A DNA stretch of 64,000 nucleotides from Escherichia coli (GCF_048403405.1 NZ_CP183129.1), one strand, 5' to 3'; shown: positions 45,198 to 57,578, counted from the first letter of the stretch. The notes: generated by a model from the sequence alone, not told the origin. Program-made: numbers and translations.

Positions 45198-46598
45198 ATG
45201 GACCAGAAGCTGTTAACGGATTTCCGCTCAGAACTACTCGATTCACGTTTTGGCGCAAAGGCCATTTCTACTATCGCGGAGTCAAAACGATTTCCGCTGC
45301 ACGAAATGCGCGATGATGTCGCATTCCAGATTATCAATGATGAATTATATCTTGATGGCAACGCTCGTCAGAACCTGGCCACTTTTTGCCAGACCTGGGA
45401 CGACGAAAACGTCCATAAATTGATGGATTTGTCGATCAATAAAAACTGGATCGACAAAGAAGAATATCCGCAATCTGCAGCCATCGACCTGCGTTGCGTA
45501 AACATGGTTGCCGATCTGTGGCATGCGCCTGCGCCGAAAAATGGTCAGGCCGTTGGCACCAACACCATTGGTTCTTCCGAGGCCTGTATGCTCGGCGGGA
45601 TGGCGATGAAATGGCGTTGGCGCAAGCGTATGGAAGCCGCAGGTAAGCCGACCAACAAACCAAACCTGGTGTGCGGTCCGGTACAAATCTGCTGGCATAA
45701 ATTTGCCCGCTACTGGGATGTGGAGCTGCGTGAGATCCCTATGCGCCCCGGTCAGTTGTTTATGGACCCGAAACGCATGATTGAAGCCTGCGACGAAAAC
45801 ACCATCGGCGTGGTGCCGACTTTCGGCGTGACCTACACCGGTAACTATGAGTTCCCGCAACCGCTGCACGATGCGCTGGATAAATTCCAGGCCGACACCG
45901 GTATCGACATCGACATGCACATCGACGCCGCCAGCGGTGGCTTCCTGGCACCGTTCGTTGCCCCGGATATCGTCTGGGACTTCCGCCTGCCGCGTGTGAA
46001 ATCGATCAGTGCTTCAGGCCATAAATTCGGTCTGGCTCCGCTGGGCTGCGGCTGGGTTATCTGGCGTGATGAAGAAGCGCTGCCGCAGGAACTGGTGTTC
46101 AACGTTGACTACCTCGGTGGTCAGATTGGGACTTTCGCCATCAACTTCTCCCGCCCGGCGGGTCAGGTAATTGCACAGTACTATGAATTCCTGCGCCTCG
46201 GTCGTGAAGGCTATACCAAAGTACAGAACGCCTCTTACCAGGTTGCCGCTTATCTGGCGGATGAAATCGCCAAACTGGGGCCGTATGAGTTCATCTGTAC
46301 CGGTCGCCCGGACGAAGGCATCCCGGCGGTTTGCTTCAAACTGAAAGAGGGTGAAGATCCGGGATACACCCTGTACGACCTCTCTGAACGTCTGCGTCTG
46401 CGCGGCTGGCAGGTTCCGGCCTTCACTCTCGGCGGTGAAGCCACCGACATCGTGGTGATGCGCATTATGTGTCGTCGCGGCTTCGAAATGGACTTTGCTG
46501 AACTGTTGCTGGAAGACTACAAAGCCTCCCTGAAATATCTCAGCGATCACCCGAAACTGCAGGGTATTGCCCAGCAGAACAGCTTTAAACACACCTGA
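45198..46598 (+). CDS. gadA: Glutamate decarboxylase GadA (PLP-dependent)
   Basis: 466-aa ORF from ATG 45198 ([19 protein letters not shown]...); identity as gadA rather than gadB rests on flanking gadX. Confidence 0.93.
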
Positions 46599-46617
46599 TA
46601 ACATAACGTTGTAAAAA

Positions 46618-46656
46618 CCGAATGCCCAACCTTTAAAAAACAGTTGGGCATTCGGT
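46618..46656 (+). terminator. Rho-independent terminator after gadA
   Basis: Inverted repeat ccgaatgcccaac...gttgggcattcgg followed by T-rich sequence. Confidence 0.75.
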
Positions 46657-47018
46657 TGCTTATTAATCGCAATAATATATTGGCTGTCTATTCATCGTGT
46701 TGATAAGATATATGTTATATGAATGTTTATTCAATGTAACGGGTGTTTTTAATGTCACTACAAGGGATTATTTGCTTACTATTAATTTCACTGCGTTCTT
46801 AAGCACGCCTTTTGTATTATAAATCCAGTCATCCTGCCCGTAGATTATCATCCTGTTTTCCCGCTTCGTTTAAATTTATTTATCAATCAATTTGACTTAA
46901 GAGGGCGGCGTGCTACATTAATAAACAGTAATATGTTTATGTAATATTAAGTCAACTATGCAACCACTACATGGTAATTGTCTAATTGCGTACGCAAGAC
47001 ATAGGTAATGACTCCAAC

Positions 47019-47522
47019 TTACTGATAGTGTTTTATGTTCAGATAATGCCCGATGACCTTGTCATGCAGCTCCACCGATTTTGAGAACGACAGTGACTTC
47101 CGTCCCAGCCTTGCCAGATGTTGTCTCAGATTCAGGTTATGCCGCTCAATTCGCTGAGTGTAACGCTTGCTGATTACGTGCAGCTTTCCCTTCAGGCGGG
47201 ATTCATACAGCGGCCAGCCATCCGTCATCCATACCACGACCTCAAAGGCCGACAGCAGGCTTAGAAGACGCTCCAGTGTGGCCAGAGTGCGTTCACCGAA
47301 TACGTGCGCAACAACCGTCTTCCGGAGCCTGTCATACGCGTAAAACAGCCAGCGCTGGCGCGATTTAGCCCCGACGTATCCCCACTGTTCGTCCATTTCC
47401 GCGCAGACGATGACGTCACTGCCCGGCTGTATGCGCGAGGTTACCGACTGCGGCCTGAGTTTTTTAAATGGCGGAAAATCGTGTTGAGGCCAACGCCCAT
47501 AATGCGGGCGGTTGCCCGGCAT
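47019..47522 (-). CDS. insB: IS1 InsB (C-terminal part of InsAB' transposase, produced by -1 frameshift)
   Basis: 167-aa ORF ...[43 protein letters not shown]... Confidence 0.93.
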
Positions 47523-47716
47523 CCAACGCCATTCATGGCCATATCAATGATTTTCTGGTGCGTACCGGGTTGAGAAGCGGTGTAAGTGAACTGCAGTTGC
47601 CATGTTTTACGGCAGTGAGAGCAGAGATAGCGCTGATGTCCGGCGGTGCTTTTGCCGTTACGCACCACCCCGTCAGTAGCTGAACAGGAGGGACAGCTGA
47701 TAGAAACAGAAGCCAC
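47441..47716 (-). CDS. insA: IS1 InsA (transposition repressor / N-terminal part of InsAB' transposase)
   Basis: 91-aa [46 protein letters not shown]... Confidence 0.95.
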
Positions 47717-55178: not shown

Positions 55179-55976
55179 AACTTGCTCCTTAGCCGTTATC
55201 GTTTCGAACATGTCATCCTTTTCATTATTTACATCCTTGTCCGAATCGTTGTTCAATATAGTAAACGCCTATAAGAACTTTGCCCTTCGTGAACTAATAC
55301 GTCTATTAACACTAATCAATACTTCAGATTTATCCATCACGCACTCCATATATTGATCCTAAGTAAGATTCCTGGTTGTTATCAATTTGTAAATGGTAAA
55401 CAAAAAGTTAACGTTTGCGGATTACTGCCCAAGAATAAGTTATCAATAACCAGTTTGTGATCTCTGAAGAATATTACTAAAGTTAAAATGTAATCCGATT
55501 TAAATATCGAGTCTCCTTGTTTCGACTTAAGCTGGCAATTGGATTGCCAGCTTTCTTTTAACGCATTGAAATTACCTGAGTAAATAACGCATTCATGTCT
55601 TCAGGTTTTTATATAGCGTCTGGAGACACGGATATTTATGCAATGTAATCAACGCCTGTTGCAAAAAAATGAACCCGGATTACTTATTTAACCGCCCATA
55701 GCATCAACGCTTACAGAACTCTTTGTTCACTTTCCCACAGCACTTTTAAAACATTAAACCTGACTACGGAAAATATCAGCCATGATAATGTTTGAAATGG
55801 CTAATTTGCCATGGAATGAAAAAAATTAGATGAAATTCAGTAGGTTGAAATAATCATCAGCAGGTAATTATTTCAATGATAGTGCGCAATTGATCTACAA
55901 CGCTGTGTAGCGGAGAGAGTATTAATCGGATCATAGTCACATCAAGTGACTATGATCCGGGTGACAACAGGAATAA
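55179..55976 (-). promoter_or_regulatory. Long AT-rich gadE upstream regulatory region
   Basis: About 800-bp non-coding AT-rich region between hdeD and gadE; position corresponds to the multi-promoter gadE control region in K-12. Confidence 0.6.
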
Positions 55977-56549
55977 TTATTGCTGCTTAACGAACAAACT
56001 GGCGAAGCTGAACAGGCTGGCGGCGCTAAATATCAGTTCAATACCCACCAGTGTGGAAACCAAAGTTACAGACACCATCGGCGTTGCACCAAGGAATATC
56101 CAGGCAATGACGATATCCAGCACACCAATAACGAGCTGTAGCCAGCTGCCTTTCATTGAACGCTGACGATACCAACTCATCAGGCGAATAACCCCTGCAA
56201 CACAGAACAAACCGGCAATAAATGCCGCAATGGCAAAAATGCCCAGCTCCGGTGCGCGGATGAAGAAATAGCCGATCAATAAATAGGCGACTGCGACGAG
56301 GAAACCGGATAATACAGGCCAGAAATTATGACTGCGGTTGCTGAATAATCCAACAATAAGCGCAACGCCCGAGCAGATTAATAATGCACCCACTACCGTG
56401 CTTAAAATATCGCCAGAGACGAACGGGAAACTGATACACAGCAACCCGACGATAAACAGCAACACGGCAATAAACTGGATTGCTCTGCGATGCTTTTTCA
56501 GCATCTCCAGATCAAACTTCAAAATTGTTGCCTTATCTATATATAACAT
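55977..56549 (-). CDS. hdeD: Acid-resistance membrane protein HdeD
   Basis: 190-aa multi-TM ORF, divergent from hdeAB. Confidence 0.93.
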   Translation of the reverse strand: MLYIDKATILKFDLEMLKKHRRAIQFIAVLLFIVGLLCISFPFVSGDILSTVVGALLICSGVALIVGLFSNRSHNFWPVLSGFLVAVAYLLIGYFFIRAPELGIFAIAAFIAGLFCVAGVIRLMSWYRQRSMKGSWLQLVIGVLDIVIAWIFLGATPMVSVTLVSTLVGIELIFSAASLFSFASLFVKQQ

Positions 56550-56803
56550 AGAACCACCCTATAAAATTAAGAAAAAAATCTCCTGCTATCAATCTATGCC
56601 AAAAACGCGTCTAAGAATGCAGTCGATTTAATAAAAATTTCCTAATTACAGTATCTGATGCATCTGTAACTCATTGTATTGAAATAAAAATATCTGATTT
56701 TGATATTTTCCATCAACATGACATATACAGAAAACCAGGTTATAACCTCAGTGTCGAAATTGATTCGTGACGGCTCTTTCACTTTATAGTTGAGGATATT
56801 ACG

Positions 56804-57136
56804 ATGAAAAAAGTATTAGGCGTTATTCTTGGTGGTCTGCTTCTTCTGCCAGTTGTGAGCAATGCAGCGGATGCGCAAAAAGCAGCTGATAACAAAAAAC
56901 CGGTCAACTCCTGGACCTGTGAAGATTTCCTGGCTGTGGACGAATCCTTCCAGCCAACTGCAGTTGGTTTTGCTGAAGCGCTGAACAACAAAGATAAACC
57001 AGAAGATGCGGTTTTAGATGTTCAGGGTATTGCAACCGTAACCCCAGCTATCGTTCAGGCTTGTACTCAGGATAAACAAGCCAACTTTAAAGATAAAGTT
57101 AAAGGCGAATGGGACAAAATTAAGAAAGATATGTAA
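56804..57136 (+). CDS. hdeA: Periplasmic acid-stress chaperone HdeA
   Basis: 110-aa ORF with signal peptide MKKVLGVILGGLLLLPVVSNA. Confidence 0.95.
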   Translation: MKKVLGVILGGLLLLPVVSNAADAQKAADNKKPVNSWTCEDFLAVDESFQPTAVGFAEALNNKDKPEDAVLDVQGIATVTPAIVQACTQDKQANFKDKVKGEWDKIKKDM

Positions 57137-57251
57137 TTCCGGGAATGCGTTACATCGTACTTCCTTGCATATTGAACAGGCCGGAATATCTTCTTTAAAA
57201 GCAGCTATTCCTCCTGTTCATATATAATCTCTATATTGAATGGGTTACAAA

Positions 57252-57578
57252 ATGAATATTTCATCTCTCCGTAAAGCGTTTATTTTTATGGGCGCTGTAG
57301 CGGCTTTGTCACTGGTGAACGCACAATCTGCGCTGGCAGCCAATGAATCCGCTAAAGATATGACCTGCCAGGAATTTATTGATCTGAATCCAAAAGCAAT
57401 GACCCCGGTTGCATGGTGGATGCTGCATGAAGAGACAGTATATAAAGGTGGCGATACCGTTACTTTAAATGAAACCGATCTCACTCAAATTCCTAAAGTG
57501 ATCGAATACTGCAAGAAAAACCCGCAGAAAAATTTGTATACCTTCAAAAATCAAGCATCTAATGACTTGCCGAATTAA
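57252..57578 (+). CDS. hdeB: Periplasmic acid-stress chaperone HdeB
   Basis: 108-aa ORF from ATG 57252 (MNISSLRKAFIFMGAVAALSLVNAQSALA...). Confidence 0.93.
   Translation: MNISSLRKAFIFMGAVAALSLVNAQSALAANESAKDMTCQEFIDLNPKAMTPVAWWMLHEETVYKGGDTVTLNETDLTQIPKVIEYCKKNPQKNLYTFKNQASNDLPN

Follow-up and report, generated by a model that had tools for sequence, protein, structure and literature searches.

Probable recent loss of function in both paralogous acid-resistance regulators, GadX and GadW, within an otherwise intact acid fitness island of Escherichia coli

The chromosome segment of Escherichia coli analysed here (GCF_048403405.1 NZ_CP183129.1; a stretch of 64,000 nucleotides, called the window throughout, which runs from yhjX through chuA according to the map from annotated relatives) carries an acid fitness island (AFI) in which both AraC-type regulatory genes, gadX and gadW, are interrupted. 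The former contains an IS1 element at codon 16, and the latter has lost a net 2 bp at codon 85 and is thereby frameshifted, while the structural genes of the island and the regulatory gene gadE are base-identical to those of a close relative with an intact island. As judged from the sequence comparisons described below, this arrangement probably reflects the natural and recent inactivation of both GadX and GadW within an otherwise intact AFI.

Results

The start codon of gadX lies at 46958, and IS1 enters after nucleotide 46 of the gene, within codon 16, where the interrupted frame runs into the element and stops after 16 residues (MQPLHGNCLIAYARHR followed by a stop codon). The element has the length of about 768 bp and the imperfect terminal inverted repeats of about 23 bp expected of IS1, the repeats being located at 47004-47026 and 47749-47771 and complementary at 83% of their positions, and it is flanked by a 9-bp direct repeat, CAAGACATA, which is present as a single copy in relatives without the insertion and is of the size of target duplication that IS1 produces. 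Its two open reading frames (ORFs), insA (47441-47716) and insB (47019-47522), are intact on the minus strand, match the profile of the IS1 transposase (NCBIfam NF033558) over positions 1-81 (90.1 bits) and 76-199 (146.6 bits), and show the insA/insB' arrangement with an A6C slippery site (TTTAAAAAAC, minus strand, about 47458-47469). The terminal inverted repeats, the 9-bp duplication and the intact insAB are therefore typical of a real transposition, and this is the sole copy of IS1 in the window.

The insertion parts gadX from a promoter-like site at 46892-46919, and untranslated IS1 sequence is normally polar. The uninterrupted 274-aa ORF behind its own promoter that characterizes GadX is thus missing, although an in-frame ORF of 254 aa starting at Met21 is still open in the remnant (47795-48559). 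This remnant covers profile positions 21-274 of the GadX model (NCBIfam NF007432) and scores 548.7 bits against an equivalog cut-off of 500. Because it passes the cut-off of the model, automatic annotation may hide the lesion, and the Prokaryotic Genome Annotation Pipeline (PGAP) does call comparable IS1-cut remnants GadX in two other strains: the one of strain CX21 is annotated as intact GadX of 254 aa from Met21 (positions 3313-4077 of the locus examined, L020), and that of strain 2018-05-2CC as an intact 275-aa fusion, which starts with TTG within the IS1 end (3333-4160 of locus L019). An exact match to the 254-aa Met21 ORF was considered as a marker of sister isolates and discarded as uninformative, because gene callers pick Met21 even where gadX is intact.

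The second lesion affects gadW, whose start codon lies at 48928. Where three relatives read AGTCACCCCCCATG, the window reads AGTCCCCCCATG, which amounts to a net deletion of 2 bp at 49180/49181 in codon 85, next to a poly-C tract. Instead of the continuous 242-aa ORF that links the N-terminal domain of GadW to its AraC-type helix-turn-helix (HTH) domain, the gene contains two ORFs of 94 and 155 aa, the start of the second overlapping the stop of the first by 23 nt. The 155-aa ORF has been found in identical form in other genomes with a disrupted gadW.

The age of both lesions may be estimated from six complete genomes (strains 4621, TUM1226, OX030728, MS 69-1, GN02461 and TUM14771), which are about 100% identical to the window over 25 kb of flanking sequence (2-19 bits below the maximum score). 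Both gadX (274 aa) and gadW (242 aa) are intact in strains 4621 and MS 69-1. A base-by-base comparison with strain 4621 over 63.2 kb returned only five differences, namely a substitution at position 11409, two single-base indels in bcsA, the IS1 element and the 2-bp deletion in gadW. Searching 5,426 complete E. coli genomes with the left IS1-gadX junction (the right junction was not searched alone) returned no other genome with IS1 at the codon-16 site, and an 86-nt query spanning the gadW site had no exact match in 5,402 complete genomes, the best hits being 97.7% identical and differing by the 2-bp gap. Since the closest relatives are intact and separated from the window by one single-nucleotide polymorphism (SNP) in 63 kb, and since the two alleles are absent from the complete genomes, both lesions are to be regarded as recent and private. 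The comparison shows them as derived events of the terminal branch, which occurred later than the split from all sampled close relatives.

The remaining genes of the island are unaffected. Annotated relatives give the order gadA, gadX, gadW, mdtF, mdtE, gadE, hdeD, hdeA, hdeB and yhiD, with the chu/shu haem cluster coming next, and the window shows the gene content and order of an AFI with intact structural genes, taking the island as gadA to yhiD. Apart from the two lesions, positions 45198-57578 show zero differences to strain 4621 in the base-by-base comparison, and gadA, mdtF, mdtE, gadE, hdeD, hdeA and hdeB are called intact in the window because they are base-identical to the genes annotated as intact in that strain. 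The small RNA (sRNA) GadY is likewise base-identical to that of strain 4621 and present in full length at 48571-48684 on the minus strand, antisense to the 3' end of gadX (Rfam RF00122, matched over model positions 1-114 of 114 with 150 bits, the gathering score being 45). The gadX-gadW region has a G+C content of 33-41%, compared to 51% for the whole window.

These observations fully confirm the factual part of an earlier note on the same DNA, which had described gadX as disrupted by IS1, gadW as frameshifted, and gadY, gadE, mdtEF, hdeD and hdeAB as intact, leaving the two regulators as the only damaged genes of the island. The 768-bp element with its 9-bp duplication and the gadX frame ending after 16 residues bear out the first statement, the 2-bp deletion relative to three relatives and the 94-aa product the second, and the base identity to strain 4621 the third. 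The note had further proposed to date each event by means of closely related genomes, and the intact genes of 4621 and MS 69-1 indeed place both on the terminal branch. Coordinates are compiled in Table 1.

Table 1. Features of the gadA-hdeB region of the window, with positions counted from its first nucleotide
Feature	Position	Strand	Basis
gadA (glutamate decarboxylase), intact	45198..46598	+	identical to the intact 466-aa coding sequence of strain 4621
sigma-70-like promoter upstream of gadX, TTGACT-16-TACATT	46892..46919	+	consensus scan; putative function
gadX 5' fragment, codons 1-15 plus 1 nt; frame enters IS1	46958..47003	+	sequence and translation
target-site duplication, left copy, CAAGACATA, 9 bp	46995..47003	.	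direct repeat, spacing 777 = 768 + 9
IS1, intact, 768 bp	47004..47771	-	inverted repeats, ORFs, target duplication
target-site duplication, right copy, CAAGACATA, 9 bp	47772..47780	.	direct repeat
gadX 3' remainder	47781..48559	+	ORF scan, profile score
gadW 5' part, frameshift after codon 85, 94-aa product, premature TGA at 49210-49212	48928..49212	+	translation
deletion site at gadW poly-C tract, wild-type TCACCCCCC, here TCCCCCC	49180..49186	+	alignment to relatives
gadW 3' ORF from Met88, 155 aa, complete AraC-type HTH domain	49187..49654	+	ORF scan, profile search
mdtF, intact	50017..53130	-	identity to annotation of strain 4621
mdtE, intact; start taken from annotation of relative	53155..54264	-	identity to strain 4621
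ES205 sRNA match, between gadE and mdtE, just downstream of gadE	54462..54533	-	Rfam RF02754, 105 bits
gadE, intact; upstream control region unchanged	54651..55178	-	identity to strain 4621
hdeD, intact	55977..56549	-	identity to strain 4621
hdeA, intact	56804..57136	+	identity to strain 4621
hdeB, intact	57252..57578	+	identity to strain 4621

Lesions of the same kinds occur at both loci in other genomes. A 2.8-kb query containing IS1, which counts genomes with the element in or within about 1.9 kb of gadXW, identified 54 genomes with IS1 in the orientation of the window and 67 with the opposite one, that is, 121 of 5,426 or about 2%. The element lies within gadX itself in roughly 70 genomes (about 1.3%), representing some 20 distinct insertion alleles by our count from the listed rows, and one of these alleles is common to a clone of about 34 genomes. 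With an average of about 11 IS1 copies per chromosome in these searches, a uniform model predicts only about 10 genomes with IS1 inside this 825-bp gene, and gadX is thus hit several-fold above the chance expectation, in a count that makes no correction for phylogeny. At least five independent insertions, in both orientations and in different E. coli lineages, fall into the first 50 nt of the gene (corresponding to 46958-47007 of the window); they comprise the allele of the window, those of 2018-05-2CC at nt 20 and of CX21 at about nt 16, and the oppositely oriented ones of FDAARGOS_1297/1295 and DFK.1/DFS.1. An apparent orientation bias, with insAB antisense in all of the first 11 alleles, proved to be an ascertainment artefact of a search that joins pieces on one strand only, the query with the flipped IS1 having added the 67 further genomes. 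In the CX-series strains, the insertion is accompanied by the loss of the 3' end of ccp, of gadA and of the 5' end of gadX.

The poly-C tract of gadW, which consists of six C in the wild type, forms an allelic series in unrelated strains of E. coli and Shigella dysenteriae, as indicated by exact-protein look-ups and by reading the tract at loci L007, L008, L015 and L028-L037. The series contains a C5 allele (S. dysenteriae and two E. coli), a C7 allele (one genome), a C4 allele (one assembly) and the CA-deleted allele TCCCCCC of the window, which recurs identically in an independent assembly (L007) of about 1% divergent background, together with a second frameshift. An import of the allele by recombination from an L007-like lineage is unlikely, because the flanking SNPs did not accompany it. 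The tract differs from a phase-variable homopolymer, which usually has at least 8 nt and switches frequently and reversibly. It should rather be regarded as a hotspot than as a switch, because the wild type has only six C and frameshift alleles are very rare in complete genomes: no exact match of the C5 allele was found there against 1,040 exact wild-type haplotypes, other flank haplotypes being unscorable by this approach.

Taken together, both loci are recurrent natural mutational targets, and the types of lesion are ordinary, whereas their combination is uncommon. Ten other genomes in which IS1 lies inside the 5' end of gadX or borders it were examined, and all of them have gadW annotated as a full-length coding sequence of 729 nt; gadX is intact in the gadW-disrupted E. 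coli genomes examined. Because the other single-lesion E. coli examined keep the partner regulator intact, the double hit in the window is exceptional. Among the S. dysenteriae genomes examined, gadX is intact in seven of eight, the remaining one (CP061527.1, locus L028) being without gadA-gadX and the 5' part of gadW. In this genome nirBD-nirC-cysG adjoins an IS1 element directly upstream of the C-terminal gadW ORF, an arrangement which indicates that gadA-gadX and the beginning of gadW were lost through rearrangement or deletion mediated by IS1.

A third private lesion of the window is located outside the island, in the gene for the catalytic subunit of cellulose synthase, bcsA (17570-20187). 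A run of six A is shortened to five at 17973-17977, and the resulting -1 frameshift leads to a stop after codon 142; this allele occurs in 1 of 5,292 other genomes. Strain 4621 carries its own independent -1 frameshift in bcsA, from five to four G at about position 18546 of the window, and a hybrid of the A6 run of 4621 with the G5 run of the window translates to the full BcsA of 872 aa. The lineage of the window has therefore accumulated three gene-disrupting changes per one SNP relative to 4621. A pure length difference attributable to the window genome is found in only 1 of the 289 homopolymer runs of at least 5 nt in the window.

Tandem repeat units of about 96-97% identity at 11544-12911 and 3310-3670 are ordinary for the region; they represent three Ldr-type toxin loci and two copies of the RtT sRNA downstream of tRNA-Pro, in agreement with the annotation of strain 4621.

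Discussion

The sequence shows that IS1 transposed into codon 16 of gadX, severing the gene from its putative promoter and cutting its normal product to 16 residues, and that gadW lost 2 bp at its poly-C tract, which separates the N-terminal domain of the second regulator from its DNA-binding domain. Both events followed the mutational routes which most often strike these two genes in E. coli. Four studies of strain K-12 (Ma 2002, Tucker 2003, Tramonti 2006 and Sayed 2007) reportedly found that GadX and GadW each activate gadE, gadA and gadBC; the two proteins reportedly also modulate each other, and GadW activates in the absence of GadX. They would accordingly be partly redundant, and the two lesions may be seen together because silencing a partly redundant branch would require the loss of both genes. 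Selection for lower expression of the Gad system and the AFI in stationary phase, be it in a host, in storage or in culture, most likely promoted the combination, with relaxed selection as an alternative to this part of the scenario; selection against the GadX/GadW branch is plausible but unproven.

The predicted consequence is a weaker RpoS- and GadX-dependent induction of gadE, gadA/BC, hdeAB and mdtEF in stationary phase, whereas the route via EvgAS, YdeO and GadE/RcsB would still act on the intact structural genes, whose control would be left to GadE/RcsB, EvgAS-YdeO and RpoS. The earlier note had suggested that control would rest on remaining regulators such as GadE and that GadY would act on a gadX transcript no longer able to encode the full-length protein, both of which may reasonably be expected from the known circuit. 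As gadX is severed from its promoter, however, little of its 3' transcript would be available for GadY to stabilise, while transcripts containing gadW would remain. The window resembles the GadX-GadW-GadY circuit of K-12 in its gene order, in the position of GadY on the opposite strand of the intergenic region and in the neighbouring gadE, mdtEF and hdeABD genes, but differs in that both protein regulators are interrupted and GadY is kept with a probably much reduced gadX substrate.

Comparable losses are known from several settings. Strains evolving under benzoate lost gadX or the entire slp-gadX island (bioRxiv 10.1101/531178), and an IS5-mediated deletion removed the island in ageing colonies (PMC13162491). 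It is well documented by these studies that loss of Gad regulators or of the island is repeatedly selected in the laboratory and that the AFI is costly under non-acid conditions. The window shares with these cases the loss of gadX or of the regulator set, but the laboratory examples concern K-12 under defined regimes and often large IS5-mediated deletions which include structural genes, whereas only the two AraC-type regulators are hit here. An IS1 insertion between gadX and gadW which arose within a patient raised the level of GadA (Levert et al. 2010, PMC2947995). These variants are similar to the window with respect to the element, the locus, the recent origin and the effect on the Gad system, but their insertion is intergenic, while that of the window is located at codon 16 and accompanied by a second lesion in gadW; IS1 inside gadX is itself found in dozens of complete genomes. 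The gadW pseudogenes of S. dysenteriae and scattered E. coli strains share frameshifts in the same tract (C5, C7, C4, TCCCCCC) and the same 155-aa C-terminal ORF with the window, and also include insertions of IS elements in gadW that leave this ORF. However, the examined genomes carrying them keep gadX (with the exception of CP061527.1), which is interrupted in the window, and S. dysenteriae represents a decaying lineage with genome-wide IS1 expansion, whereas the window contains a single IS1.

Several points weigh against a selected double loss. The argument from redundancy leans on the K-12 literature, and the analysis covered the genes read from the sequence of the 64-kb window, while rpoS, evgAS, ydeO and gadBC lie outside. 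In addition, the choice of the window was made post hoc, and since both loci are hotspots, mutation rather than selection may explain some of the co-occurrence. Finally, the private frameshift in bcsA suggests that disruptive changes are generally in excess or that some homopolymer errors persist in the sequence. This frameshift fits either a burst of stationary-phase trait loss, in a host or in storage, or a residual assembly error; under the first of these two readings, the strain would have shed cellulose and the GadXW branch as stationary-phase traits, which would support selection.

The strongest alternative to the selected double loss assumes neutral decay, in which two unrelated hits happened to strike neighbouring mutation-prone sites, an AT-rich target of IS1 and a poly-C tract. 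The earlier note had framed the two lesions as either a striking coincidence or the result of selection against GadXW activity. This choice holds insofar as there are two independent lesions whose pure coincidence is unlikely, but it has lost some of its force. Both sites are recurrent, as apparent from the many positions and both orientations of IS1 at gadXW, from its repeated insertion into the first 50 nt of gadX and from the frameshift series of gadW in unrelated lineages including S. dysenteriae; an IS1-flanked transposon has also integrated at gadW during in-vitro evolution, and the low G+C content of the region points in the same direction. Selection, moreover, is deduced rather than demonstrated, and the third private frameshift in bcsA adds a general excess of disruptive changes, which may be adaptive or artefactual. 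Each lesion is nevertheless rare, since IS1 lies inside gadX in about 1.3% of the complete genomes, the gadW allele of the window was found in 0 of 5,402, and even its C5 counterpart had no match against 1,040 wild-type haplotypes. If the two lesions have frequencies around 1% and below 0.1%, they should coincide independently in fewer than about 1 in 1e5 genomes, and in any case at well below 1e-4 per genome. Because this joint frequency is low and both events fell on a branch with a single SNP in 63 kb, pure coincidence is unlikely and neutral decay may account for the pattern only with a rather small probability.

Somewhat more doubtful is the possibility that only the insertion in gadX is real and that the 2-bp deletion in gadW and the A6-to-A5 change in bcsA are residual errors of sequencing or assembly beside homopolymers. 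Both small indels adjoin such runs and are absent from all close relatives, and the comparator 4621 itself exhibits a homopolymer indel in bcsA. The change in gadW, however, removes 2 bp including a base other than C, unlike the usual homopolymer error of plus or minus one base, and the TCCCCCC allele evidently arises biologically, because it is present in the independent assembly of divergent background. The assembly also appears to be of high quality, as judged from the single length difference among its 289 homopolymer runs.

The least probable explanation is a rewired rather than silenced island, in which a GadX without residues 1-20, expressed from a hybrid promoter of IS1 and target sequence, and an HTH-only GadW (Met88-242), translated by re-initiation, would activate GAD-box and gadE promoters independently of signals, or compete there in a dominant manner, and deregulate the AFI; we consider this improbable. 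It would be in line with the open Met21 ORF above the GadX equivalog cut-off and the labelling of such remnants as GadX by PGAP, with the complete HTH domain of the 155-aa ORF and its 23-nt overlap with the upstream stop, and with the raised GadA level in the patient isolates mentioned above. A TTGGCA hexamer at the IS1 end, seen by eye 19 nt from a TATATT just before Met21, might be taken for the hybrid promoter as well, but was rejected as such, since it is not conserved in the other insertions at the 5' end of gadX. A consensus scan with 16-18 nt spacing returned no outward hybrid promoter at the IS1-gadX junction, no Shine-Dalgarno sequence is located upstream of Met21 or Met88, and the occurrence of 5'-end insertions in both orientations argues against a consistent hybrid promoter. 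Moreover, proteins of the AraC-type family usually fail to dimerise once residues 1-20 or the entire N-terminal domain are missing, and active truncated products of GadX or GadW appear unlikely. In a milder version, the strain would have given up gadX, gadW and bcsA jointly, as an adaptive removal of stationary-phase modules that depend on RpoS.

Provided that both lesions are real, the strain represents a natural gadX gadW double mutant in the background of a pathogenic lineage, with 4621 and MS 69-1 as near-isogenic wild-type relatives. It would then offer a clean test of the contributions of the GadX/GadW branch and of EvgAS-YdeO-GadE to the expression and the cost of the AFI. The double knockout also cautions against predicting phenotypes from annotation, and the two recurrent mutational targets, one at the 5' end of gadX and one in the poly-C tract of gadW, are of relevance wherever acid resistance is to be predicted from genome sequences.

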